Below are positions 1 to 41,180 of a stretch of DNA of 64,000 nucleotides, piece by piece. Within the stretch, counting starts at the first letter, position 1, and every line of letters begins with the position of its first letter. The notes beneath the pieces were generated by a model, which saw nothing but the letters and a program-made list of their open reading frames with translations, was not told the DNA's origin and made no database searches. The translations under genes and the position numbers were made by a program. Origin of the DNA: a candidate division WOR-3 bacterium (GTDB taxonomy: Bacteria; Hydrothermota; Tepidihabitantia; SM23-42; JAOAFX01); the NCBI GenBank assembly GCA_039802005.1, contig JBDRVV010000003.1, positions 64,595 to 128,594 of the forward strand. The letters run 5' to 3'.

Positions 1-1169
1 ACTGGTTTGAACAGTCAAATAATGCGGCAGCAAGGAAATTCTTTGATATCACCTGCCGTGATAATCTCAAAGCCTGGACCTGTGGTATTCTTGGAGAAAT
101 TACACACACAAATAATGGCGGGCAGACTTGGACCCATCAGGTTCAGGGGCTGGCAAAATATGCTACAAGAATTGAATTTATTGATGATACATTGGGATGG
201 GTAGTATGTGGAGACGGTGTCGTAGGCAGAACAACCGATGGTGGCGCATACTGGGAGCAGATATTCACACCCTGGGCACAGGCAGAACTTTATGGTGTTT
301 CATTTGCTAATGCCTATGAGGGATGGGTTGTTTCAGGATGGCCTGACAGTCTTGACACAGGGCAAGGTTTAATCATTCACACAACGGATGGTGGGTTTAA
401 TTGGAATTTACAATATTTCAGTTCTGTCTATGAAGATTTTTTTGATGTCCATTTTTTTAATGTTAACATAGGCATAGTGGTCGGTGGTAATGAACAAAAT
501 TATTCACCAATAATCTGGAAAACCATTGATGGAGGATATATCTGGACCCCAATTACTGCACCAGCAAATGCATATTATCTCCGTGCCCTTGATTTTGTAG
601 ATGATTTAAATGGCTGGGCAGTCGGGAGATTTGGTACAATAATCCACACAACTGATGGTGGAAATACCTGGAATTTTCAGACAAATCCTGCCACCACAAC
701 CTTGTTTGATGTGGATTTCTCTGATACACAACATGGAATTGCCTGCGGTCAGGGGATAATTTTGTACACAACGAATGGTGGAAATACCTGGAATACTGGT
801 ACAGGAATAGAAGAATCTTCAAATTCGCAATCCGCAATCCGAAATCCGAAATTTGAAATCTATCCCAATCCATTCAAAAATCACTGCCTAATTAAATTCC
901 AAATCCCAGATCCCAATGATCAAAAAAATTCCAATTCCCAAATTCCAAACAAATCCGAAATCCGCAATCCGAAATCCGAAATTTCTTTAAAGATCTACGA
1001 TGTTTCCGGTCGTCTGGTTAAATCATTTAACCATTTAACCAATTACCAATCTTCAATTATTTGGTCTGGTGATGATGACCTTGGTCGCAACCTACCCGCA
1101 GGTGTTTATTTAATAGAATTTGAATCTGGCAACCACGCAGCAATGGAGCAAGTAATTCTTATAGATTAG
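1..1169 (+). CDS. BNR/Asp-box (Ycf48-like) repeat protein with T9SS C-terminal sorting domain; 5' end lies outside the window
   Basis: The reading frame is open from position 3 with no upstream stop. Repeated S/T-x-D-G-G-x-x-W motifs are present (THTNNGGQTW, TTDGGAYW, HTTDGGFNW, KTIDGGYIW, HTTDGGNTW, YTTNGGNTW). The C-terminus reads YPNPF...IKFQIP...SLKIYDVSGRLV...LPAGVYLIEF, which is typical of Por/T9SS CTDs. Confidence 0.6.
   Translation, partial: WFEQSNNAAARKFFDITCRDNLKAWTCGILGEITHTNNGGQTWTHQVQGLAKYATRIEFIDDTLGWVVCGDGVVGRTTDGGAYWEQIFTPWAQAELYGVSFANAYEGWVVSGWPDSLDTGQGLIIHTTDGGFNWNLQYFSSVYEDFFDVHFFNVNIGIVVGGNEQNYSPIIWKTIDGGYIWTPITAPANAYYLRALDFVDDLNGWAVGRFGTIIHTTDGGNTWNFQTNPATTTLFDVDFSDTQHGIACGQGIILYTTNGGNTWNTGTGIEESSNSQSAIRNPKFEIYPNPFKNHCLIKFQIPDPNDQKNSNSQIPNKSEIRNPKSEISLKIYDVSGRLVKSFNHLTNYQSSIIWSGDDDLGRNLPAGVYLIEFESGNHAAMEQVILID
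822..1060 (+). repeat. T9SS-CTD coding cassette with heptanucleotide tandem tracts (copy 1 of 3 near-identical copies)
   Basis: Tracts aattcgc/aatccgc/aatccga/aatccga (822-853), aaatccg x4 (951-984) and ttaacca-like (1026-1060). The cassette is near-identical to 3928-4123 and 8730-8925. Confidence 0.7.
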
Positions 1170-1176
1170 GAGAAAA

Positions 1177-4100
1177 ATGAAAAAAATAATTTTGGTCTTA
1201 ATAATCTTTGGGTTATATTATGTTGTTGCACAAGAAATTGGTGCAAAATATTTGATTATTACCCATGATAATTTTTATGATGCAATCCTCCCCTATGCCC
1301 AATGGAAACATAAAATGGGATTGTGCACAAAGATTGTCAGGGTCCCTTCAGAACTTGCCCAGAATGCTACAATAATTAGAAATTATATCGTTAATGCCTA
1401 TAATACCTGGCAGATAAAGCCGGAATTTCTTTTGATCGTTGGTGCGCCCAATTATATTCCCTGGTCGATGACTTCACCATACAGTGATAACAATTATACA
1501 AATATGAACACCGATATTTACAATGAAATCCTTTCAGGAAGACTTACGGTTCACAATATAACCGAAGCCCAGACCGTTGTGAATAAACTGCTTTTATATG
1601 AACGTCATCCGGACACAACCAATACTGGATGGTTCATTAACGCCTGTTTGATCGTCCGCGAAGATTACGAACAATACAGCGATTCAATCTACTGGAGTGA
1701 CATAAGGCATGCCAAAAGATTGATGAATGAAAATGATTTTAATATTATTGACACCCTCTCCCGTGCGCTCGGCAACAGTTCAAGTGATGTAATCAACAGA
1801 GTAAATCAGGGTAGGGGGTTTGTTTTATACCGGGGGCAGGGTGTTGGCAACTGGTGGAACCCGTTCGCGGTTGACCCCGACCAGACTCAGAATAGTGCAA
1901 GACTACCTATTGTTCTTTCAATAACCTGTCAGACAATCGGAACTGGTTCGTCTCCTGCCACTGCTGAAAAATGGTTGCTCACTGGAACACCAACAACGCC
2001 CCGTGGTGGGGCAGGATATTTTGCCACGACAACGATTGTCACTCATGGGGCGAATTTAAGAAGTGCAGTATGTAAAGGATTCTTTGACGCACTTTTTGCT
2101 GAAAAAAAGAATAGATTTGGTGAGGCGTGTGAAAATGGCAGAAAAAGAGTCTATCAAATGTACGGAGACCAGCAGGAATATCGCGGATTTACGACACTCG
2201 GTGATCCGGCAATGCAGTTATGGACTGCAAAACCTATGTATATTAATGTTTCACACGATTCTATCATTTATACCGGGAGAGAAGATACATTAAATATCAC
2301 AGTGGAATATCAGGGAACACCAGTTGAATCTGCTTTTGTTTGTATTGTGCTGGATACATTAATATATGAGACAGGATATACTAATTCAAATGGCGAAACC
2401 TTTTTTATCGTCAATCCATCATTACCCGGAATAATGTATATAACAGTCACAGGCAGGAATCTTTATCCCTATGAAGGAACGATTCCGGTAATTACGGGTA
2501 ATGTCCACCTCAATTATATTTCATATTCGTTTAATGATTCACTGGGAAATGCCAATGATACAATCAACGCAAACGAAACAATACTTCTATGGGCAAAGAT
2601 TAAAAATATCGGATATTCTCCTGCTCATAATGTCAAAGCACTTTTGAAAACCGCTGATACAACAATTCAAATCAATGATAGTATTTCTCTTTATGGCGAA
2701 GTAATTCCCATGACTGAGCAAAATGGGTTAAATCCCTTTGTCTTTTCGGTTTCTCCGCATGCCCATTCTCACTCTATCCCTTTTGAAATTATATTGACCG
2801 ATGCACAAGGGGATACATTCATCCATAATTTTTCAGTACCGATTTTAAGTAAAGAGATTGGCCCTGTCGGGCCCGACCCTTATGGCTATTACATTTATGA
2901 TGATACTGATACATTGACGGGTAATGCACCAATTTACGAATGGTTTGAAATTGCACCCCCAGGACCCGGATTAGTTGTCAGTGAAATAACAGATGAGGAT
3001 GCTGATACAGTGACATACAATCTTCCTTTCACATTTAAATTCTATGGAATTAATTATAATTCTATTGGTCTATGCTCCAATGGATTTTTAGAATTGGGCA
3101 CATCCACACACCGATTTGGCAGCAACACAGCAATTCCATTACCCGGTGGCCCAAAGAGAATGCTCGCACCCTTCTGGGACGACCTTGATTTGAGACCCGC
3201 ACCCACTGGTAATGGCGAAGTCTATTATCACAACGATACGACAAATCACAGATGGATTGTAGAATATAAAAATTGTGCCCATTATGGTAATACATCAACC
3301 CTTGAAACTTTCCAGACGATTCTACTTGACCCCCAGTATTATCCAACGCCGACCGGAGATGGCGAAGTGCTATTCTTTTATAACACAGTCTCAAATGCTG
3401 GAGAAAATAGTGTGGGTATTGAAGACGAAACTGAAACCCGCGGTTTGCAGTATCTTTTCAATGGTAGTTATAACCCAAACGCAGCACCCATTCAAAATGG
3501 CAGGGCTTTGTTGATCACCACCAAACCACCAACAAGTCAGCATTCCCCCTGGATCAATCTTACCAATTATACGATAAATGATTCGTTGGGCGGTAACAAT
3601 AACGGCATCCCCGAGCCTGGAGAAACGATTGAATTGACAATTTATATAAGAAATGGCGGTGACACACTCGTTTCAAATGTAAATGGTATTTTAAACACAA
3701 ATTCAATGAGCGTTTCTTTAATTGATACGATTGCTGATTTTGGAGATATTGATATTGGACAGGTTGTTAACAATAGTTCAAATCCTTATATCTTGCAAAT
3801 TACAGAAAATCCAGCTGATACCCTGGTCGGATTGATTATTCATTTTTCAGGCAATGATGGAAATTACAGCACCAGTGCCTATTTAACTTTAAAGATTCAT
3901 TCTGAAGTCAAGATTGAAGAAGGTTCAAATTCGCAATCCGCAATCCGAAATCCGAAATTAGAGGTCTATCCCAATCCATTCAAAAATCACTGCGTAATTA
4001 AATTCCAAATCCCAAACAAATCCGAAATCCGAATTCCGAAATCCGAAATTTCTTTAAAGATCTACGATGTTTCCGGTCGGGTTGTTAAATCTTTTAATCC

Positions 4101-4245
4101 TGAATCCTGTATCCTGAATCATGCATCAGGTATCACCTGGTCTGGTGATGATGATATGGGTCGCAAACTTCCTTCAGGCGTATATTTTATTGATTTTAAA
4201 TCCGACGAAATAAAAGAAATGAAAAAAGTTATTATGTTGAGATAA
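1177..4245 (+). CDS. Secreted peptidase C25 (gingipain-like) family protein with CARDB-like Ig domains and T9SS CTD; catalytic His position reads Gln
   Basis: Signal peptide MKKIILVLIIFGLYYVVAQ. C25-like blocks YLIITHDNF, FLLIVGAPNYIPW, SGRLTV, LYRGQGVGNWW (gingipain has YTGHGSETAW here) and SITCQTIG (catalytic Cys block). RBS aggag at 1165-1172. CTD reads YPNPFKNHCVIKFQIP...KIYDVSGRVV...LPSGVYFIDF. Confidence 0.6.
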   Translation: MKKIILVLIIFGLYYVVAQEIGAKYLIITHDNFYDAILPYAQWKHKMGLCTKIVRVPSELAQNATIIRNYIVNAYNTWQIKPEFLLIVGAPNYIPWSMTSPYSDNNYTNMNTDIYNEILSGRLTVHNITEAQTVVNKLLLYERHPDTTNTGWFINACLIVREDYEQYSDSIYWSDIRHAKRLMNENDFNIIDTLSRALGNSSSDVINRVNQGRGFVLYRGQGVGNWWNPFAVDPDQTQNSARLPIVLSITCQTIGTGSSPATAEKWLLTGTPTTPRGGAGYFATTTIVTHGANLRSAVCKGFFDALFAEKKNRFGEACENGRKRVYQMYGDQQEYRGFTTLGDPAMQLWTAKPMYINVSHDSIIYTGREDTLNITVEYQGTPVESAFVCIVLDTLIYETGYTNSNGETFFIVNPSLPGIMYITVTGRNLYPYEGTIPVITGNVHLNYISYSFNDSLGNANDTINANETILLWAKIKNIGYSPAHNVKALLKTADTTIQINDSISLYGEVIPMTEQNGLNPFVFSVSPHAHSHSIPFEIILTDAQGDTFIHNFSVPILSKEIGPVGPDPYGYYIYDDTDTLTGNAPIYEWFEIAPPGPGLVVSEITDEDADTVTYNLPFTFKFYGINYNSIGLCSNGFLELGTSTHRFGSNTAIPLPGGPKRMLAPFWDDLDLRPAPTGNGEVYYHNDTTNHRWIVEYKNCAHYGNTSTLETFQTILLDPQYYPTPTGDGEVLFFYNTVSNAGENSVGIEDETETRGLQYLFNGSYNPNAAPIQNGRALLITTKPPTSQHSPWINLTNYTINDSLGGNNNGIPEPGETIELTIYIRNGGDTLVSNVNGILNTNSMSVSLIDTIADFGDIDIGQVVNNSSNPYILQITENPADTLVGLIIHFSGNDGNYSTSAYLTLKIHSEVKIEEGSNSQSAIRNPKLEVYPNPFKNHCVIKFQIPNKSEIRIPKSEISLKIYDVSGRVVKSFNPESCILNHASGITWSGDDDMGRKLPSGVYFIDFKSDEIKEMKKVIMLR
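3928..4123 (+). repeat. T9SS-CTD coding cassette with heptanucleotide tandem tracts (copy 2)
   Basis: aattcgc aatccgc aatccga aatccga (3928-3959); aaatccg-type x3 (4018-4050); aatcctg aatcctg tatcctg aatcatg (4096-4123). Confidence 0.7.
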
Positions 4246-4264
4246 TTTAGGAGAAGGGGGAATC

Positions 4265-7200
4265 ATGAAAAAGTTTTTGGAATTATCATTAATTTTTGCA
4301 ATCCCTTTTTTCATATCGGGTGAGGGAATTACCGGAATAAAAAGATTAAAATATGTTGATCCATATGATGTCCAGATGACATCGTATCAAGAATGGTCAG
4401 CAAAAATTACAAAAGAATCTTTCAAAATAGGCAAGGCTTACCAGAGTAAAATAAAAGATTCTCGTTTGCCAATGTTTGATATTGTCGTATATGCTCCTCT
4501 TTATCCAAACATCATTGATTCATTAAATACTTACATCACCGACCTTGAGACAGAAAATTATAATGTTCGTGTTGATACGATTCGCGGCTGGCAGGCACCA
4601 CAATTGAGGAATCATCTTGCATCACTAATAGATAGCCAGCTCGTTGGTGCGGTATTCATTGGTAATGTTCCTATCGCTTGGTATGAATATGAATCGACCG
4701 AAGGGCGCGAGGAATTTCCGATTGAATTATATTTTATGGATCTAAACGGAACCTGGGTTGATGCGGATAATGATGGTCTTTTTGACAATCATACCGGTAA
4801 CAAAGCACCTGAAATCTATGTCGGTAGAATCTATGCCAACCCTGTGACCTGGGGAAACGAAATATGGCTTGTTAATAATTATCTTTCAAAAATCCATAAA
4901 TACCGGAACATTGGCTATGCGATCCCTAAAAAAGCACTTGCTTATGTAGATGATGACTGGTATAGTTTTAATAACTGTAGTTTGAATCTCCTTTATGATA
5001 CCGTGGTCGTTATTCGACAATACAATACTACAACTGCTGCTGACTTTCGTACACGCCTTGACGACCCCTACGAATGGGTGCAAATCTGCAGTCATTCTTC
5101 GCCCTGGGGTAATACATTTAAAAATACATCTGGCTATGCAGGTACAGTCTTCAATTTTGAATTATGGTTTGCTGACCCTCCATTTCTATTCTTGAACTTA
5201 TTTCAGTGTGCAGGAACAAGATTTATTGAAGAAAATTCAGAAGGCAGCATTTATATTTTTAATACAACAAACGGACTTTTATCAATCGGTTCAACAAAAG
5301 TTGGAAGCATGCTAAATTTTGATGGATTCTATGGACCGCTAAATACAGGAATTTCAATCGGGCAGGCATTCAAACAATGGTTTACCCAATATGGTATTAA
5401 TGATGTGGATTGGTTCTATGGAATGTGTATTTTAGGAGACCCAACTTTAAAGCCAAAACGAACAGGATTGCAAATGGTGAGTCAAAATAACAAATATTAT
5501 CCATTGGAAACTTCTCTAAACTGGTCAAATCCTGCCCCGATTGATACCCATCCTGAAACCGATGCCTTTGTCACCAATACCATAGACGGTCAAGGAAGAT
5601 TATGGACAGCCTGGGTGACCGGGCGTTCAGTAACAAACGGCAGAACCGAAATCTGCGCGTCATATTATGCAAATGGAAGTTGGACACAGGCACAGATTGT
5701 GCGACCATATCTTTACTGGGATTTTTTCCCTTCAATGTCAACTGACCTCCTGGGAAATCCATACCTAACCTGGCAAAGGGCTTATGGAAGGAATTACGAT
5801 GTCTTTGGCAGCGTCTACATAGGAAACCAGTGGGGTACCGAAGAACAATTAAGTTCTAAAGCATCAAATGATATGTATCCGGCAATGACCAGGGATGGTG
5901 ATGGTAGATTATGGGTTTGCCTTGAACGATGGACACATTTGAATGGTGATATCTATTGCCGTTATTTTGACGGGACTACCTGGCAGCCAATGTTTGCAGT
6001 AACGGTAGATTCAGCCAATGATTATCGGCCCGCAATGGCAACCGACAGCAATGGAATTGCCTGGGTAACCTGGTGTAGTGAACGTTATCAATACAATAGG
6101 AATATATATGTAAAGCGTTACAATCCAACTTCAGGAAGTTGGGAAGGGTTATACAGAATCACAGGTAATCCTGCCCAGGATCAGGACCCGAAGATTGCGG
6201 TCTCGGGCGATGGCACGATCTGGGTTGTATGGACGACCTGGCGGAATGGTAATACCGATATTTACGAAAGCCATTACAATGGTTCAACCTGGTCTAATGC
6301 CCGAGCAGTAGTTGCTGACCCAAATCGCGATGAACACCCTGTGCTCGTTGTTGATAGAGATGGCTATCTCTGGTGTATCTGGCAATCCAACAGAACCGGT
6401 GATTGGGAAATATGGGCAAAATATTATAAAAATGGTGCCTGGGGAGATTCTATGGTGATAAGCAATAATCAAGCCCGGGATATATTCCCCAGTGCGATAG
6501 CAGACGACTCAGGATATATATGGGTTTTCTGGCAATCAGATAGAAGAGGAAATTGGGATATCTTTTACAGCAAACTTCTATCTGACCTTGTTGAACCCCA
6601 GGTCACTGTGATTACACCTAACGGCGGAGAAATCTGGAATATAGGACAAACTTATACAATCCGCTGGTCTGCCCAGGACAATGTAGCAGTTGATTCTGCT
6701 GTCATTGAATATTCAACAAATAACGGTAACAGCTGGAGTTATATAGCTACTTCATTTGGCAATGATTCAACTTATCTCTGGACAATACCACCCACCCCGT
6801 CAACGCGTTGTCTTGTCCGCATCCGTGCGTTTGACAGAAATAATAATATTGGAATTGATGTATCTAATGCAACCTTCACGATCTACGACCCTGTATCACC
6901 TTTAGTCAATGTGCTCATTCCTAATGGTGGTGAAATATGGTACTGGAATGAATTACATCAGATTCGTTGGAATTCGAGTGATAATATCGGTATAGACAGT
7001 TTGAACATCTATCTTTCCATTGACAGCGGTCTAACCTATCCGTACCGCATTTCTCATTTCAATACCAATGATTCTATTTATAACTGGACTATTCCCACGG
7101 TAAACTCTAATAAGTGCTTAATTAAGGTGCTTGCCTATGACCGTTCTGCAAACATCGGTTATGATGTGAGTGATAATTGTTTTACAATCGGTGCGGTCGG

Positions 7201-7489
7201 CGTTGAAGAAAATAACACGCAGCCTACACAGTTTTTTATAAATCTTTTTTCTCCTAATCCTTATGGCGTCGGACCACTGATTCAGTTAGCAATTCCTGTT
7301 CCGACATCGGTAACACTGAATCTCTACGATATAACGGGCAAATGTGTTTATTCAATTGCAAATGAAATCGTTTCGCCTGGCTATCTCTACTACGACCTCG
7401 GGAAAGAAGAATTATCTGCGGGTATTTACTTCATTTCGGTCAAAACGAAAGAATTTTCAATCGTAAGAAAAATTGTTATTCTGAAATGA
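4265..7489 (+). CDS. Secreted multidomain protein: C25-like peptidase core, WxxW/BNR-like beta-propeller repeats, two Ig-like (PNGGEIW...) domains, divergent T9SS CTD
   Basis: Signal peptide. C25-like blocks IYVGRIYA, CSHSSPWGNTF (His block) and LFQCAGTRF (Cys block). About 50-aa repeats of the form D..G..W..W...R.GN.DIY. Ig-like blocks ITPNGGEIWNIGQTYTIRWSAQDNVAVDS and LIPNGGEIWYWNELHQIRWNSSDNIGID. C-terminus LNLYDITGKCV...AGIYFISV. Confidence 0.55.
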   Translation: MKKFLELSLIFAIPFFISGEGITGIKRLKYVDPYDVQMTSYQEWSAKITKESFKIGKAYQSKIKDSRLPMFDIVVYAPLYPNIIDSLNTYITDLETENYNVRVDTIRGWQAPQLRNHLASLIDSQLVGAVFIGNVPIAWYEYESTEGREEFPIELYFMDLNGTWVDADNDGLFDNHTGNKAPEIYVGRIYANPVTWGNEIWLVNNYLSKIHKYRNIGYAIPKKALAYVDDDWYSFNNCSLNLLYDTVVVIRQYNTTTAADFRTRLDDPYEWVQICSHSSPWGNTFKNTSGYAGTVFNFELWFADPPFLFLNLFQCAGTRFIEENSEGSIYIFNTTNGLLSIGSTKVGSMLNFDGFYGPLNTGISIGQAFKQWFTQYGINDVDWFYGMCILGDPTLKPKRTGLQMVSQNNKYYPLETSLNWSNPAPIDTHPETDAFVTNTIDGQGRLWTAWVTGRSVTNGRTEICASYYANGSWTQAQIVRPYLYWDFFPSMSTDLLGNPYLTWQRAYGRNYDVFGSVYIGNQWGTEEQLSSKASNDMYPAMTRDGDGRLWVCLERWTHLNGDIYCRYFDGTTWQPMFAVTVDSANDYRPAMATDSNGIAWVTWCSERYQYNRNIYVKRYNPTSGSWEGLYRITGNPAQDQDPKIAVSGDGTIWVVWTTWRNGNTDIYESHYNGSTWSNARAVVADPNRDEHPVLVVDRDGYLWCIWQSNRTGDWEIWAKYYKNGAWGDSMVISNNQARDIFPSAIADDSGYIWVFWQSDRRGNWDIFYSKLLSDLVEPQVTVITPNGGEIWNIGQTYTIRWSAQDNVAVDSAVIEYSTNNGNSWSYIATSFGNDSTYLWTIPPTPSTRCLVRIRAFDRNNNIGIDVSNATFTIYDPVSPLVNVLIPNGGEIWYWNELHQIRWNSSDNIGIDSLNIYLSIDSGLTYPYRISHFNTNDSIYNWTIPTVNSNKCLIKVLAYDRSANIGYDVSDNCFTIGAVGVEENNTQPTQFFINLFSPNPYGVGPLIQLAIPVPTSVTLNLYDITGKCVYSIANEIVSPGYLYYDLGKEELSAGIYFISVKTKEFSIVRKIVILK

Positions 7490-9042
7490 TTAGATTGACC
7501 TTCTTGTTATCATTCATCTTGCATCTTGTATCCGGTGTATTCTTAATTGACCCTCGCTATCACACATATGCAGAAATGGTCCAGGAAATTGACTCTATTG
7601 CGTCTCACTATCCTACGATCACAAAGTTATACAATCTTGGATTTTCAACCCGCGATAGTTTACCTATTTTGGGTATAAAGATTTCGGACAATCCCGGAAT
7701 AAAAGAAGATGAACCTGCGGTTTTATTCAACGGAATTCACCACGCAGAGGAATTATTGGGGTGTGAGGTCTGTTTGTATCTTCTAAATGACCTCGTCAGT
7801 AAATACGGCATTGATTCAGCAATCACCTACTGGATAAATAATGCGGAAATCTGGATAATTCCAATTTTAAATCCTGAAGGGCATAATGTAGTAATGAACG
7901 GTATTGATTCTATATGGCGTAAGAACAAAAGGGATAATAACAATAATGGATTTTTTGACCTTGATTCAGATGGAGTTGATTTAAACCGTAATTATGACTT
8001 CAATTGGGAACAGGGTGGTAGTCCAAATCCAAATGATGAATATTATCGCGGCCCCTATCCATTTTCTGAAAATGAATCAAGAATTATTAGAGACCTTGCG
8101 TTCCAAAATCATTTTGTCTTTGATATCTGTTATCACTGTGCACGCACTGGACAGGGTGAGTTAGTCTATTACCCGTGGCGCTGGGGGAATCAATTTGCAA
8201 TAGACCATCCATTTATAAAAAGAGTTGCAGACACCCTCGCCTCAAAGATAATAAACGATGCCGGCAATGGAACTTATGTTCCGATATATGGTTATGCTAC
8301 GGAAGGAAATGCCAGGAATTACCTTTACGGAGTCTGTGGTACATTTGCTTATACAATTGAATTGAGCAGAGGTTGTTATCCACCCGGCTATAGAGTTGAT
8401 AGTATCTGTATGAGAAATCTACCTGGCGCCTATTATCTTTTGGAAAGGACATTCGGTTCAAGTATCACCGGCATAATCACAGACTCAATCACAAACCAGC
8501 CGATTGTTGCAGAAGTAAGGGTTGTTGGTTATTATGACTCAACACTAACACCCCGATTAAGCGATTCACTATTCGGCAGATACCGGAGAATTTTGAATCC
8601 AGGTACATATTCATTACAATTTAGAAAACAGGGTTATGATACTATTACAATTAATAATGTTGTTGTATCACCCGGAACTCAAACAATTTTAAATGTAAAG
8701 ATGAGACCACTTGGAATTAAAGAATCTACAAATCCGCAATCCGCAATCCGAAATCCGAAATTAGAGGTCTATCCCAATCCATTCAAAAATCACTGTGTGA
8801 TTAAATTCCAAATCCCAAACAATTCCGAAATCCGAAATCCGAAATCCGAAATTTCATTAAGTATCTATGATATTTCAGGTCGGGTTGTTAAACAATTTAA
8901 CCATTTAACCATTCAACCATTTAGCCAGGTTGCCTGGGATGGTTGTGATGATTCAGGTCGCGGATTGCCTGCAGGTGTGTATTTTATAAAATTTGCGGCG
9001 TGGGATTCCAAGAAGGTAGAGAAGGTAATACTTTTGAGATAA
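7486..9042 (+). CDS. M14 zinc carboxypeptidase with CarboxypepD_reg-like domain and T9SS CTD
   Basis: HHAEELLGCE (HxxE zinc ligands), NPEGH, WRKNKRD. A transthyretin-like block PIVAEVRVVGYYD...PGTYSLQFRKQGYD. CTD YPNPFKNHCVIKFQIP...SIYDISGRVV...LPAGVYFIKF. Start overlaps the upstream stop (ATGA). Confidence 0.7.
   Translation: MIRLTFLLSFILHLVSGVFLIDPRYHTYAEMVQEIDSIASHYPTITKLYNLGFSTRDSLPILGIKISDNPGIKEDEPAVLFNGIHHAEELLGCEVCLYLLNDLVSKYGIDSAITYWINNAEIWIIPILNPEGHNVVMNGIDSIWRKNKRDNNNNGFFDLDSDGVDLNRNYDFNWEQGGSPNPNDEYYRGPYPFSENESRIIRDLAFQNHFVFDICYHCARTGQGELVYYPWRWGNQFAIDHPFIKRVADTLASKIINDAGNGTYVPIYGYATEGNARNYLYGVCGTFAYTIELSRGCYPPGYRVDSICMRNLPGAYYLLERTFGSSITGIITDSITNQPIVAEVRVVGYYDSTLTPRLSDSLFGRYRRILNPGTYSLQFRKQGYDTITINNVVVSPGTQTILNVKMRPLGIKESTNPQSAIRNPKLEVYPNPFKNHCVIKFQIPNNSEIRNPKSEISLSIYDISGRVVKQFNHLTIQPFSQVAWDGCDDSGRGLPAGVYFIKFAAWDSKKVEKVILLR
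8730..8925 (+). repeat. T9SS-CTD coding cassette with heptanucleotide tandem tracts (copy 3)
   Basis: aaatccg caatccg caatccg aaatccg (8730-8763); aattccg aaatccg x3 (8821-8852); ttaacca-like tract 8896-8925. Confidence 0.7.
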
Positions 9043-37337: not shown

Positions 37338-40300
37338 TTACCGTGCTATTATAAACTTCTCAATTTTTTTATCAGTTCCGGAATTTCCCTCAGCAAGGAT
37401 ATTAACCAAATATACACCATTACTCAAATCATCCCCATACTCATCTCTGCCATCCCAGAATTTTTGATTATAGCCCGCATGACAGGAAAGTTCTGGTAAG
37501 ACCTTAACCAATCTGCCTGCAATCGTATAGATTTTTATCGTTACCTTTGCGCTTTGCGAAAGGACAAATGTAATCCATATACCTTTATGATGTTTTACAG
37601 GATTAGGATATATCAGAACATTCTCTATTGAAATGCGCTCATAGATATTAGCATTCAATAGAATCTTTTCAATGGTTTGATTATAACAATTATCACTTAC
37701 ATAGACGGTTATAGATTCTTGTGGATTATCAAGTGTAATTTCGGTTTTGAATTCTCCTTCTGAATAGGAATTTTGATTGTAGATAAAATTATTACGCAAA
37801 TCAACACGATTTAAGACATTATCCTTGCCCACATACAAAAAGAAACCACGTGCGTCTTCTTTAGAATTTAAAAGGTTAATTCCACTTTCATCAGAGACAA
37901 TTCCGGTAAGCGTAAAAGTCTTATCCACCCAGTCTCCATTTTTTAATTGTCGTGCACCATCATAGAATAATACTTTAGGACCCTCCTGGTCAGTAGTAGG
38001 CATTACAGTCCCCCAGACACGGATAGAATCAAGTGTACTACTTGTTTGGTCTTTATAACCACTCAATTTAATCACAGGTAAATGAGTTGTTGAAATAATT
38101 GGTACAGCAAATTGTGCGGTATCAATCGTCCAGTAACCATTATAAACTTCTTTACCTTCTATTCGATAATCAAAAATTAAAGTATCCTGGGTGTTAGGGC
38201 CTACACGCACCGTGCGTCTTATATGGCTGCTTATTTTATTTACGGTAGTAGGATCAATCCATTTGATATGCGTGGTATCTTTAATATATGCAGTCAAATA
38301 ATATGGTTTTTTATCAGAAAGTACTTTCAATTTCTCTAATGGCCTTATTGAGTCTTGAACTGTTTGAATATTGAAATTCTGTTTTACCTTTCTTATTTTA
38401 GTCGCCGGGTCACCAAGCATCAAATAGGTGGATATACCATTCCCTCTGTGTTTGGCAATATAATAACATTCACCCATTGTCAGATTTGTATCGGGATGCG
38501 TAAAGAGTCTAAAAAGTTCAATACCAATCGGTTGATTTGTACTTGTATTTGAAGCAGCGTGTGCACCCATTGTGCCGATCGCCCCCTGTTTCATTCTCAC
38601 AAATTCTTCAGCAATACACTCATGGTCTGAGTCATCAAATCTACCCACTGTGCAGGAAGCAAAATAGAAGAAGAAAAATCTCCTTCCATTATTCACCCTT
38701 GGTATATCGGTTTCTATAAATAATTTTTCATGGGCAAGTTGATGGGTATTACCATGCCCAAAGAAACAACCAATCAAGGCACCCTTATTGAGTTCCTTGA
38801 TAAAATCTTCTGTCGCAAGGGGTTTCACGGTATTCACATCATGAGGAGGAAATGGTAAATAACTCAGCATATATATTTTAGCCCGATCATATAACAGATT
38901 TGAGACAAAAGAATTAACTGCCTCACAGGCAGAAGAATGTGTAGTTCCTTCCCACCCATTTGCATATTCATCATCTGCAGAAAGTATGATTCTTCTATTC
39001 CATGTTCCATCTATATCACTATTCTCATAGGCAAATACTTTATCAATAAAATCACGGACTTCCTTGTTGGTACGGACAGTTATTCTGCCAAGAACCATTG
39101 CCTCAGTCCCGAAGAAATTCACATACTCACCCTCGTAGATATAGTTAGGTGGGATCCCTGGATTACCCGAAAGTGTTGTCCCGGTCTCATACATTGGGAC
39201 ATAATTCGGTGGATTCTCCTTGCCGAGGTTATTTTTGTAATCATAGGTAGCATCGCCAACGATAAGGACATACTTTGGAATAGTAGACCAGTTATTGTAT
39301 GTATGATAAAGAAAATGTTTAATTGCCAATGGGTCATATTTTCCGAAAGAAAAGTCATCAAATATTGCATCTACAGTTACCACCTTTGTAGTATATTCCT
39401 GCCGGCGATAATTGACCAAAGGCATTATTGAGTTATAAAAATTTTTGTGGGTTATGATCAAATATTCAGATCCATTGTCCACAGTTCTCAAACGACCCGG
39501 ACTGACTGGAATTAGTTTTGCATCAATTGCTGATTTTAATTGGGCAGCATACAATAACTGAAAAGAATCACAATTGCTGGAAAATGTGATATTCTTCCCA
39601 CTCATCAAAAAGTTATCAAGCATCTTTGGCTGGCGTAAGTCGGTTATATCAATGATAAATGGTTTAGAATTAACATTCTTGCATCTTATTGAATAATCAA
39701 CAGGATTTTTGAAAAAACAATGAAAAGGCTCAGTCATATCCGCCAAACGATTGTATTCTATATCAAAACAATTCAGGTAAACTGTAAGTCTTGTCGTGTC
39801 GGGTGGTAACCTTCTAACCCAGAATTCAAAAATAGAGGAATCCTTATTTAAAACACAGGTTCCTGATAATTTGACCGGGGGTAAAGACATCGTCTGCGGC
39901 AGGACAATAGTATCATTGAAAAAAGATTGACCGTCCAGAATTAACCTATACCAGAATGGCTGGGGACTCGGACTCATAGAATCAAATATTGATACAATAA
40001 TATTTGCATTACCAGAAGCATATTTATGGTTTAGGGGGACTCTCACAACCGTACTTTCAGCAGTGCCCAATGAAAAATCCATCCAGTACCAGTTTATTCC
40101 AGAACGTGTCGGATTATGAATATCCTCTTCAAAATGCAGAATTTCTTTAACGACGGTATCCGGGTTTGAATTATTCGAGGTTGCATTCACCTTTTCCATT
40201 CTCTTTCCTAACGCACCACCAAATGTAAACCAATATACATTATTTTTTGCATAGCCATTTTCATACCATTTCAAAAATGTATCTGGAACAAAATGGCTTG

Positions 40301-41180
40301 CAGGGAAACCGTAGAATATTAAATAATCATCTTTATCAAAACTATGGTCTTCTTCACCCTCAACAAATACAGGAATTTCTATGAGGGAATCAGGGAACTG
40401 CTGGAGCACATTTTTGGGCAATAGTTCAAATGCTGCATTGTATACCTTCATTGTTTGCGGGTCAAGTTGCCGCGGGTTTATCCCTGCCTTTTTTAGCTCA
40501 TCATACCCTATTTTATATAAACCTTCTTTATCTACTTCAATCTTAAACCATATGTTACTGACTGAAAATGGATTCTTTATTGTTTGTTCTAACCTTTCTC
40601 TACGCCAATATTTACACTGATCATAATTTATTATTACCCTCTTATAAATTTCCTCAAAAGAATCATTAAAGAGCGGTACCACCTTTGGTTTACCTTTAAA
40701 TTTGACTGTGATCTTCAAAACCCGCGAAATTATAATTTCTTTTTTAATAGGGTTATAGCGTACCGGATTTATTTTTAAACTAACTGTATTAATATCACGG
40801 AAATAATTAGGAGCAGATACTTCAATTATGTTTTCGGGATAGAGATGGTCTTTCTGATAGACTTTAGATACCTGATTATTAATCTCACCATAATCTCCCT
40901 CATATATTGCAAGTGACGGTACCGGCTTTATATCTATTCCAGAGTAAATTTCAGTATGATGTTCTATGACTCTCACATCCACATCGCCTTCCTGGGGAAT
41001 GCCTACAAATAAATTTAAAGAAGGTACATCGGGTTCACCGGGCTGGGCAAATGATGTCGCCCCGCTGAATTTTAAATTATTTAGTTCTATTTCTCTCCCG
41101 TAAAAATTAATCTGGATGCCCGCATCGCCCAGATTATTTACACTAACGGCAGAAATGATAAAGAAAGAAATGACAAACAT
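37338..41180 (-). CDS. Peptidase C25 (gingipain-like) cysteine peptidase, 1280 aa, with Ig-like modules and T9SS CTD
   Basis: YLIITHKNFY, YVLIVGDATYDY, GCFFGHGNTHQ (catalytic His) and FYFASCTVGRFD (catalytic Cys). CTD YPNPVKHHKGIWITF...KIYTIAGRLV...GVYLVNI. Confidence 0.75.
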   Translation of the reverse strand: MFVISFFIISAVSVNNLGDAGIQINFYGREIELNNLKFSGATSFAQPGEPDVPSLNLFVGIPQEGDVDVRVIEHHTEIYSGIDIKPVPSLAIYEGDYGEINNQVSKVYQKDHLYPENIIEVSAPNYFRDINTVSLKINPVRYNPIKKEIIISRVLKITVKFKGKPKVVPLFNDSFEEIYKRVIINYDQCKYWRRERLEQTIKNPFSVSNIWFKIEVDKEGLYKIGYDELKKAGINPRQLDPQTMKVYNAAFELLPKNVLQQFPDSLIEIPVFVEGEEDHSFDKDDYLIFYGFPASHFVPDTFLKWYENGYAKNNVYWFTFGGALGKRMEKVNATSNNSNPDTVVKEILHFEEDIHNPTRSGINWYWMDFSLGTAESTVVRVPLNHKYASGNANIIVSIFDSMSPSPQPFWYRLILDGQSFFNDTIVLPQTMSLPPVKLSGTCVLNKDSSIFEFWVRRLPPDTTRLTVYLNCFDIEYNRLADMTEPFHCFFKNPVDYSIRCKNVNSKPFIIDITDLRQPKMLDNFLMSGKNITFSSNCDSFQLLYAAQLKSAIDAKLIPVSPGRLRTVDNGSEYLIITHKNFYNSIMPLVNYRRQEYTTKVVTVDAIFDDFSFGKYDPLAIKHFLYHTYNNWSTIPKYVLIVGDATYDYKNNLGKENPPNYVPMYETGTTLSGNPGIPPNYIYEGEYVNFFGTEAMVLGRITVRTNKEVRDFIDKVFAYENSDIDGTWNRRIILSADDEYANGWEGTTHSSACEAVNSFVSNLLYDRAKIYMLSYLPFPPHDVNTVKPLATEDFIKELNKGALIGCFFGHGNTHQLAHEKLFIETDIPRVNNGRRFFFFYFASCTVGRFDDSDHECIAEEFVRMKQGAIGTMGAHAASNTSTNQPIGIELFRLFTHPDTNLTMGECYYIAKHRGNGISTYLMLGDPATKIRKVKQNFNIQTVQDSIRPLEKLKVLSDKKPYYLTAYIKDTTHIKWIDPTTVNKISSHIRRTVRVGPNTQDTLIFDYRIEGKEVYNGYWTIDTAQFAVPIISTTHLPVIKLSGYKDQTSSTLDSIRVWGTVMPTTDQEGPKVLFYDGARQLKNGDWVDKTFTLTGIVSDESGINLLNSKEDARGFFLYVGKDNVLNRVDLRNNFIYNQNSYSEGEFKTEITLDNPQESITVYVSDNCYNQTIEKILLNANIYERISIENVLIYPNPVKHHKGIWITFVLSQSAKVTIKIYTIAGRLVKVLPELSCHAGYNQKFWDGRDEYGDDLSNGVYLVNILAEGNSGTDKKIEKFIIAR

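Follow-up and report, generated by a model that had tools for sequence, protein, structure and literature searches.

A 64,000-nt stretch of contig JBDRVV010000003.1 from a candidate division WOR-3 bacterium (hereafter, the window) contains three genes for unrelated secreted proteins, a BNR/Ycf48-like beta-propeller protein, a peptidase C25 paralog, and an M14 carboxypeptidase, which end in closely similar DNA encoding a C-terminal sorting domain (CTD) of a type IX secretion system (T9SS). We lean towards the explanation that these ends are copies of a multi-copy WOR-3 CTD cassette, whose linker and loops are built from short arrays of 7–8-nt units, and which has been homogenised and reshuffled by recombination without working as a switch. 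While T9SS CTDs are usually treated as divergent signals acting at the protein level, this WOR-3 subfamily behaves as a DNA-level module.

Sorting-domain cassettes in the window

The BNR, C25, and M14 genes can be aligned over their last ∼330 nt. In the part that starts ∼10 nt ahead of the first heptamer and reaches the strand reading ‘...GR(V/L)VK’, DNA identity was 93.4% for C25/BNR, 91.6% for C25/M14, and 87.3% for BNR/M14, and it fell to only 58–66% over the remaining ∼110 nt of the domain downstream. The longest exact stretches common to copies measured 61, 45, and 28 nt. With up to two mismatches allowed, the 14-mer AAATCCGAAATCCG occurred 22 times in the window against 0.96 expected, a count reached in 0 of 100 shuffles, and 21 of these occurrences fell within the three cassettes. 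The remaining five CTDs of the window were divergent and had no arrays. The cassettes and their three repeat blocks, as detected with Tandem Repeats Finder (TRF), profile searches, and alignment, are as follows (s2–s3 and s4–s5 denote loops between consecutive strands of the domain):

807–1169, + strand: cassette copy 1, T9SS type-A CTD of the BNR protein (CTD profile match 804–1166)
821–860, + strand: copy 1 block 1, AATYCGM heptamers in the pre-CTD linker SNSQSAIRNPK (TRF period 7, 5.7 copies)
894–982, + strand: copy 1 block 2, s2–s3 loop; a degenerate AAATCCC run including a 39-nt extra segment, then an AAATCCG x4 core at 951–982 (TRF period 7, 67% matches; alignment gap of 39 columns)
1024–1045, + strand: copy 1 block 3, type B, s4–s5 loop; CATTTAAC 8-mers, then CAATNNN 7-mers (TRF period 8, 2.8 copies)
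3913–4245, + strand: cassette copy 2, CTD of the C25 protein, with three blocks (TRF; profile match; structure model)
3927–3958, + strand: copy 2 block 1 (TRF, AAATCCG-type 7-mers)
4006–4049, + strand: copy 2 block 2 (TRF, AAATCCG-type 7-mers at 4018–4049)
4096–4120, + strand: copy 2 block 3, type A, AATCCTG x3.6 (TRF)
8716–9042, + strand: cassette copy 3, CTD of the M14 protein, with three blocks (TRF; perfect-tract lengths; homology to the ortholog ends at 8717)
8730–8761, + strand: copy 3 block 1 (TRF, AAATCCG-type 7-mers)
8804–8852, + strand: copy 3 block 2 (TRF, AAATCCG-type 7-mers at 8824–8852)
8891–8927, + strand: copy 3 block 3, type C, AACCATTT x4.6 (TRF, period 8)

An earlier, sequence-only reading had located shared segments at the 3′ ends of these three genes, and both direct sequence reads and the alignment confirmed them there. 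Its description of the DNA as almost identical is generous for BNR/M14 at 87%. The peptide strings that it quoted were correct, and the CTDs that it set apart as divergent (genes at 4265, 11694, 14495, 37338, and 44872) are divergent and also array-free. The tandem 7-mer organisation that it described holds for blocks 1 and 2 and for block 3 of copy 2, whereas block 3 of copies 1 and 3 has a period of 8. The copy-1 insertion, given as 48 nt, is actually 39 nt or 13 amino acids long (DPNDQKNSNSQIP) and is itself a degenerate AAATCCC heptamer run.

All three segments are bona fide T9SS type-A CTDs. They scored 28.1 (BNR), 34.9 (C25), and 36.8 bits (M14) against TIGR04183 (cut-off 23) and 35.2, 35.1, and 30.9 bits, respectively, against PF18962 (cut-off 27), with each profile match ending three residues short of the stop codon. 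An AlphaFold2 model of the C25 CTD, built on a 24-sequence alignment, had seven strands (predicted local distance difference test, pLDDT, 81.6; predicted template modelling score, pTM, 0.74), and its top Foldseek matches in the PDB were 5m11 (PorZ), 8glk_D (NucA CTD in the translocon), 8qb1 (mirolase CTD), 6za2 (PorU), and 5ag8 (RgpB CTD). On this model, the repeat blocks are predicted to encode a linker and two loops rather than the beta-sandwich core:

Model residues 4–14: block 1 (SNSQSAIRNPK), disordered inter-domain linker before strand 1 (pLDDT ∼52)
Model residues 31–45: block 2, s2–s3 loop between the strands at 26–30 and 46–50 (pLDDT ∼60)
Model residues 61–71: block 3, s4–s5 loop (pLDDT ∼75)

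The block-1 linker corresponds to the region of PorU cutting in Porphyromonas gingivalis. The topology of the RgpB CTD matches this block placement, and insertions as well as substitutions are tolerated in the linker of RgpB (PMC4804311). The s2–s3 loop of cassette CTDs exceeds that of array-free CTDs by about 7–20 amino acids, with a difference of about 7–8 residues to the array-free CTDs of the 24-sequence alignment.

Exchange among sister genomes and gene context

A search with the cassette peptide returned 26 proteins, nearly all from metagenome-assembled genomes (MAGs) of candidate division WOR-3 and mostly marked ‘partial’ at contig ends; the many partial homologs of this kind indicate that the cassette is multi-copy and breaks short-read assemblies. 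Our comparison DNA came from the MAGs JBDRWB, WD, WE, WF, WH, WI, and WJ and from other contigs, and the window was 80–92% identical to these MAGs in shared regions. One contig of JBDRWI (L003) is syntenic with the window and carries an upstream CTD, the BNR gene, and two C25 paralogs, all four of which end in the cassette. A contig of JBDRWD (L126) is syntenic with window positions 3931–8717 at 80% identity, and this alignment extends no further than 8717, where the M14 cassette has its 5′ edge. The M14 ortholog in L126 (509 versus 518 amino acids) has a homologous CTD without arrays (‘...ISEVLKKEKVQNRLEIYPNPFNDHCVIKFPKSWCREKILIYDIYGRTVKKFDLTSSTPFPLGIVWFG...’), in which the loops are shorter and which belongs to a protein nine amino acids shorter. 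The 5′ half of the window M14 CTD is 91.6% identical to that of the C25 protein 4.8 kb upstream, and blastn did not align it with the CTD of the M14 ortholog. The window M14 CTD thus resembles its paralogous neighbour far more than its ortholog.

Mosaicism was also evident in an alignment of 12 copies extended to 17, all of which come from short-read MAGs. Block 3 occurs as four alleles, namely AATCCTG 7-mers (type A), CATTTAAC with CAATNNN after it (type B), AACCATTT 8-mers (type C), and GTNAACG 7-mers (type D, in L131), with 93–100% identity within a type (88% for type C) and ∼41–56% between types. The type is uncoupled from the tail and from the loop-length class. The window C25 copy has type A and its L126 ortholog type B, yet their tails are 98% identical; the window BNR copy has type B and its L003 counterpart type A; and the class of the loop before block 2 (short or +39 nt) was seen with types A, B, and C in all six combinations. 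Breakpoints of these mosaics tend to sit at the arrays. The non-orthologous M14 CTD, the swapped block-3 alleles, and the six combinations thus give good support to the gene conversion or modular CTD exchange that the sequence-only reading had proposed.

Silent sites point in the same direction across genomes. Between the window and its L126 orthologs, third-codon-position identity was 60% for the 1074-aa gene that lies between the C25 and M14 genes and 49% for the M14 gene. Across cassette copies, it reached 84–86% in block 1 plus core 1 and 84% in the block-2 core, compared with 62–66% in core 2, 62–69% in core 3, and 37–43% in the tail. Within-genome and between-genome values were equal (86/84% for block 1 plus core 1, 84/84% for block 2), and clustering of copies by genome was not seen in these 5′ segments of the cassette, which implies either exchange between genomes or selection on nucleotides. 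Window positions 4130–4600 and L126 positions 200–670 share a tract of recent inter-genome recombination. This tract spans the C25 CTD tail (98% identical) and the first ∼100–120 codons of the 1074-aa gene, in which third-position identity was 97% and then 83%, and it ends at block 3; the rest of the 1074-aa gene beyond it has a third-position identity of about 55%. Taken together, these comparisons show reticulate exchange within and between genomes, and the nucleotides of the first ∼125 nt at the 5′ end may in addition be under selection.

In the explanation that we favour, the three segments would represent one T9SS type-A CTD subfamily of a WOR-3 lineage, and the domain would most likely take Sec-exported cargo through the T9SS translocon before being cut off by PorU. 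The arrays would be products of past replication slippage, retained only in in-frame combinations and by now short, interrupted, and fixed in length. The DNA likeness among unrelated cargo genes would come from gene conversion that acts on the CTD copies of one genome, neighbours above all, and homologous exchange between related genomes would add to it, resulting in mosaics. The data show the identity of the domain, the placement of the blocks in linker and loops (on a predicted model), mosaicism, non-orthologous replacement, conservation of silent sites, and a constant unit number; we infer the slippage origin of the arrays and the role of conversion as homogeniser, and likewise that the repeats have no regulatory role.

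The cassettes lie at the left end of the window, where the open reading frame (ORF) map shows four co-oriented genes, each with a CTD above the curated PF18962 and TIGR04183 cut-offs in profile searches. These genes and the sortase gene of the window are:

1–1169, + strand: BNR/Ycf48-like beta-propeller cargo gene (Pfam PSII_BNR and Por_Secre_tail)
1177–4245, + strand: peptidase C25 paralog, 1022 amino acids, with putative signal peptide and CTD (PF01364, 156 bits)
4265–7489, + strand: intervening 1074-aa cargo gene (TIGR04183, 30.8 bits)
7486–9042, + strand: M14 carboxypeptidase cargo gene, 518 amino acids (PF00246, 158 bits; CarboxypepD_reg; Por_Secre_tail)
37338–41180, − strand: PorU, the T9SS sortase that cleaves CTDs (NF033707, 478 bits, cut-off 420)

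The 5′ end of the BNR gene lies outside the window, and its ORF listing begins at an internal TTG at position 192; the ortholog in L003 (309–1721) has 470 amino acids and a putative signal peptide. The CTD of the 1074-aa gene (7196–7486) is divergent and has no TRF arrays. Judged by eye, the N-termini of the C25 protein (MKKIILVLIIFGLYYVVAQE), the M14 protein (MIRLTFLLSFILHLVSG), and the BNR ortholog in L003 (MKIKYMALFLILCNVLFA) are putative Sec signals. As for the T9SS machinery, PorU was the component searched for, and a full PorU is encoded within the window. The window thus has two C25-family proteins, the full PorU and the cassette-bearing paralog, which scored 88 bits on the PorU model and hence below the cut-off of 420; L003 has two C25 paralogs in tandem at the corresponding place. 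Window positions 1–52 match positions 52–1 of L002 (JBDRWI010000103) at 100% over 52 nt, at the end of that contig. The window start is probably a contig end, and L002, which carries another cassette-bearing gene, is probably its upstream neighbour in the assembly graph, possibly mis-binned.

Several further CTD sequences were observed in the sister MAGs. An orphan, promoterless CTD fragment in L124 (3995–4246; JBDRWH010000030) starts at block 2, covers CTD model positions 20–89, and has no upstream cargo gene; two other CTD genes flank the ∼360-nt non-coding gap that contains it, and the fragment may represent either a silent cassette or a relic of recombination. In-frame inserts of 33 and 69 nt directly follow block 2 in L003 (1500–1535) and in L002 (minus strand, ∼455–525). 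Both are bounded by a hairpin, GCAAGGCT..AGCCTTGC, and the longer one holds an 18-nt tandem duplication. A different insert occupies the same place after block 2 in L127.

Periodicity of the arrays and rival explanations

Several observations weigh against our favoured explanation, including the periodicity of the arrays. We surveyed ∼141 kb of WOR-3-type DNA with TRF, 7.8% of whose bases are CTD-coding, and all 55 distinct arrays in CTD-coding DNA had a non-triplet period (7 in 49 arrays, 8 in five, and 14 in one), whereas 38 non-triplet and 25 triplet arrays were found outside CTDs (Fisher's test, p = 1.5e-8), although these counts are not independent, given that the copies are homologous and the loci were picked via the cassette. 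Arrays of period 7 or 8 outside CTDs had at most 3.4 copies. Other CTD subfamilies (L129, L130, L125, L131) carry unrelated units at the same three sites, namely TTCCGCN in block 1, NGATACA in block 2, and AATCNTG-like or GTNAACG units in block 3. Four 7-nt units encode only ∼9 residues, so that the period has no explanation at the protein level. With purifying selection constant, plain in-frame slippage would be expected to favour triplets and would hardly build runs of four to six 7-mer units, which leaves the periodicity unexplained; possible sources are array growth in silent or inactivated copies followed by conversion, template-switch joints, or slow on/off switching of export. The silent-site pattern is also difficult to reconcile with classical within-genome concerted evolution, which would cluster copies by genome instead of yielding equal identity within and between genomes, and identity reaches its maximum at the 5′ edge of the homology, the place at which conversion is expected to be rarest. 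Finally, some of the mosaicism could reflect chimeras of short-read assembly, given exact shared stretches reaching 61 nt.

Several other explanations come into consideration. The arrays may be maintained as parts of a cassette system whose target is the secretion signal itself, either as template-switch or slippage joints at which segments are swapped, including those of silent partial copies, or as a slow on/off control of export. Such maintenance would account for the exclusively non-triplet arrays, for the unrelated units at the same sites, and for the 5′ silent-site conservation, and we regard it as fairly unlikely. The sequence-only reading had proposed a contingency switch. In such a switch, single 7- or 8-nt units in blocks 1–3 would be gained or lost by strand slippage, which would frameshift the CTD and leave the cargo made but unexported or unattached, in a reversible manner. 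Such frameshifting is feasible in principle: all 18 simulated changes by one unit truncated the protein soon after the array (mostly within 0–20 codons), leaving it 35–102 residues short and without the last CTD strands. Non-triplet units inside ORFs of secreted or surface proteins, and their exclusive occurrence in the arrays of these CTDs, match the classical signature of contingency loci. Block-2 loop-length classes of +21 nt (from the DNA alignment) and ∼+42 nt (from protein P0005 only) equal three and six units, and M14 block 2, with 4.1 uninterrupted units, passes the permissive threshold of at least three units used in screening for heptanucleotide simple sequence repeats (SSRs) in Haemophilus influenzae (PMC2651432). 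Documented heptanucleotide switches, in contrast, have 13–38 units (PMC2651432), while perfect tracts measured 17–19 nt (2.2–2.4 units) in eight of the nine window arrays, and only that at 8824–8852 was longer (29 nt, 4.1 units). Across the window and the MAGs JBDRWB, WD, WE, WH, WI, and WJ, unit number was constant in block 1 (10 copies) and in the core of block 2 (15 copies), as it was in block 3 of type A (nine copies), type B (three), and type C (three), despite ∼40–50% silent-site divergence elsewhere. Overall, the number of units did not vary within any array type in 15–17 copies from at least seven MAGs. The order of variant units inside block 1 was conserved too, and the arrays therefore behave as fixed sequence. 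The loop-length classes (−18, +21, +39, and ∼+42 nt) are confined to the degenerate part of the loop upstream of the core, a pattern consistent with old slippage of which only frame-preserving outcomes were kept. Among 5.8 billion proteins, none had the predicted out-of-frame tails (NFFKDLRCFRSGC, EIRGLSQSIQKSLRN), a weak test in view of the few genomes of this clade present, and only generic heptamer-array peptides from other contexts were returned. The single frameshifted copy, at the contig start of L003 (1–310; JBDRWI010000057), has an additional T (aaatTtccaaatccc) outside the units, giving ‘...IRNFFKDLRCCRSGC*’, and its position at a contig end suggests either a sequencing error or a real pseudogene. 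Given the short perfect tracts, the constant unit number, and the lack of out-of-frame alleles, a contingency switch is not supported, and we consider it decidedly unlikely.

The 5′ part of the cassette, ∼125 nt comprising block 1, core 1, and block 2, may have a nucleotide-level role. It could form a recombination or template-switch joint that promotes the swapping of sorting-signal segments, possibly with silent cassettes as a source, or a DNA- or mRNA-binding or regulatory motif, and either would account for selection on silent sites. We rate this as unlikely. The equal third-position identity of 84–86% within and between genomes stands above a baseline of 50–60% and peaks at the very 5′ edge of the homology; breakpoints coincide with arrays (at block 1 between M14 and L126, at block 3 alone between the window C25 copy and that of L126, and from block 2 in the L124 orphan); an AAATCCG array is kept in the same loop of a distant CTD (L034) despite diverged flanks; and the sense RNA is C-rich, G-poor, and less structured than all 200 dinucleotide shuffles (z = +2.5 at 3922–4070 and +1.9 at 8724–8872, + strand), with no significant deviation for the antisense. 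Conversely, neither strand had an Rfam match or significant RNA structure, no consistent promoter or terminator signal, inverted partner, or candidate recombinase was found nearby, only one orphan cassette was seen, and frequent recombination in a multi-copy family can give the same silent-site pattern. Alternatively, the heptamer arrays could be insertions of a promiscuous simple-repeat or palindromic element that crosses phyla and enters permissive loops, merely spread by the cassette. Rickettsia palindromic elements are known to insert in permissive protein loops. The 20-mer AATCCGAAATCCGAAATTTC was present in at least 120 metagenome contigs, among them contigs with in-frame arrays within genes of the RluD-like, LepA, Tgt, and RimO-like kinds and Acidobacteria-like contigs with a palindromic element of ∼140 nt, and the hairpin-bearing in-frame inserts of L003 and L002 adjoin block 2. 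The cassette, on the other hand, has no similarity to those elements beyond the array, its arrays lack an inverted partner, the window has no copy outside CTDs, and the different units at the same sites in other CTD subfamilies argue for a local origin; we consider insertion of such an element very improbable. Assembly artefacts are improbable in the extreme. Collapse or chimeric joining across the repeat could be suspected from exact shared stretches of up to 61 nt, from the many sister-MAG contigs that end inside the cassette, and from the identity of window positions 1–52 to the L002 contig end, which resembles a graph overlap of about k−1. Nevertheless, each copy has private single-nucleotide differences and indels, one contig traverses all three, the order of cassette-bearing genes recurs in independently assembled MAGs, all copies keep the reading frame, and the junction between M14 body and cassette is unique sequence. 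The private differences and the same arrangement in sister MAGs led us to reject the assembly collapse that the sequence-only reading had listed as a caveat.

Other candidates were examined and set aside. Proteins P0015, P0020, and P0023 were rejected as frameshifted genes, P0015 being an orphan CTD remnant in a non-coding gap and P0023 starting at a contig end. Exact-match look-ups returned no record for P0005 or for the M14 protein of the window. No Rfam family matched the cassette at gathering scores or at E values up to 1, apart from meaningless microRNA and long non-coding RNA matches. As a hairpin or miniature inverted-repeat transposable element, the cassette offered only trivial inverted repeats of 9–12 nt. 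Matches resembling sigma-70 promoters or terminators were no commoner than in shuffles, and none was common to the copies. A diversity-generating retroelement does not fit, given that substitutions were mixed (T/A, T/C, C/T, A/G) rather than adenine-specific; no systematic search for a reverse transcriptase was made. The cassette mRNA has 25–28% C and 8–11% G, compared with 19% and 18% in the window, and in this resembles a Rho-utilisation (rut) site.

The metagenome scan with the 20-mer returned mostly unrelated contexts and was of little use for repeat-number variants, and two kinds of context recurred. About one third of the matches listed (L004–L123; for instance L060 5540–5760, L079 1830–2080, L021, and L066, judged by eye) were near-perfect palindromes of ∼140 nt on Acidobacteria-like soil contigs (‘gggggaattttgaaattggacgaatcctgcatctcaAATCCGAAATCCGAAATTTC...gaaatttcggatttcggatttgagatgcaggattcgtccaatttcaaaattccccc’). 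The palindrome is not covered by any Rfam family, and the Acido-Lenti-1 RNA also occurs on two palindrome-bearing contigs. In-frame AAATCCG arrays of 3.5–5 units, ending in AAATTTC, were seen in housekeeping genes of unrelated uncultivated bacteria (L006 and L054, RluD-like; L020, LepA; L025, Tgt; L078, RimO-like; L105; L115), and in two RluD-like orthologs the array was intact, with an equal number of units, between diverged flanks.

If the repeats only mark permissive loops, as in our favoured explanation, cassettes of this kind would fragment MAG assemblies and create ‘partial’ proteins, CTD phylogenies would not track cargo phylogenies, and the linker and the s2–s3 and s4–s5 loops would tolerate 7–20 extra residues, which could be useful for the engineering of T9SS tags. 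If the repeats were instead maintained for exchange or switching, they would represent the first programmed variation acting on a T9SS export signal, and this in a candidate phylum that is free-living, not in a pathogen adapted to a host. What merits follow-up is the recurrent non-triplet periodicity.

Comparison with known systems

Our literature search found no paper that deals with the heptamer or with the T9SS CTDs of WOR-3, and none on gene conversion or phase variation of CTDs. The cassette shares with type-A CTDs the YPNP, (I/V)YD..G(R/K), and G(V/I)YF motifs and a PorU sortase encoded nearby (PMC4804311). It also resembles the solved CTDs of RgpB, PorZ, and mirolase in its profile scores, its C-terminal position on cargo with a putative Sec signal, and its predicted seven-strand beta-sandwich. 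It differs from known T9SS CTDs in that its linker and its s2–s3 and s4–s5 loops are encoded by tandem arrays of 7–8-nt units, and in the silent-site conservation of its 5′ half, which extends over unrelated cargo genes and over different genomes.

In Neisseria opa genes, CTCTT pentamers in the leader-peptide region lead to translational phase variation. There, as in the cassette, a translated non-triplet repeat lies within the export-signal part of the ORF and a change by one unit abolishes, or in the cassette would abolish, export of an otherwise intact protein, but the opa arrays are long, perfect, and variable in number between cells and strains, whereas the WOR-3 arrays have ∼2.4–4 perfect units, are invariant, and lie in a C-terminal signal. 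Neisseria pilE/pilS and Borrelia vlsE are systems of gene conversion from silent cassettes, and they share with WOR-3 the mosaic conversion of short tracts among many partial copies, one of which, in L124, is promoterless. While pilE/pilS and vlsE vary an exposed antigen, the variable WOR-3 product would be a signal domain that is cleaved off, and only one orphan copy and no dedicated recombination machinery were identified in WOR-3. The heptanucleotides among the short tandemly repeated repetitive (STRR) sequences of cyanobacteria, another phylum, are likewise lineage-typical tandem 7-nt units of several sequences; they are mostly intergenic, whereas those of WOR-3 occur only at three sites of a single protein domain.

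The heptanucleotide SSRs of H. influenzae, found in the hmw1A and hmw2A promoters and, as (AATTTTG)14, within hmw1A, comprise 13–38 units and vary between strains (PMC2651432). They resemble the WOR-3 arrays in their 7-nt unit, in their association with genes for surface or secreted proteins, and in offering an intragenic example of frameshifting, but the WOR-3 arrays have about four or fewer perfect units and showed no variation. In the P. gingivalis T9SS cargo Kgp, RgpA, and HagA, adhesin domains undergo modular rearrangement and allelic exchange (PMC5266723). Tandem non-triplet arrays have not been described for those modules (PMC5266723), and the exchanged adhesin domains lie upstream of the CTD, whereas in WOR-3 the sorting domain itself is exchanged, in segments of ∼40–130 nt. 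In both cases, near-identical C-terminal modules are shared among T9SS cargo genes through recombination and without relation to strain phylogeny, and the adhesin-module rearrangement of P. gingivalis is the closest published analogue of the exchange described here (PMC5266723).

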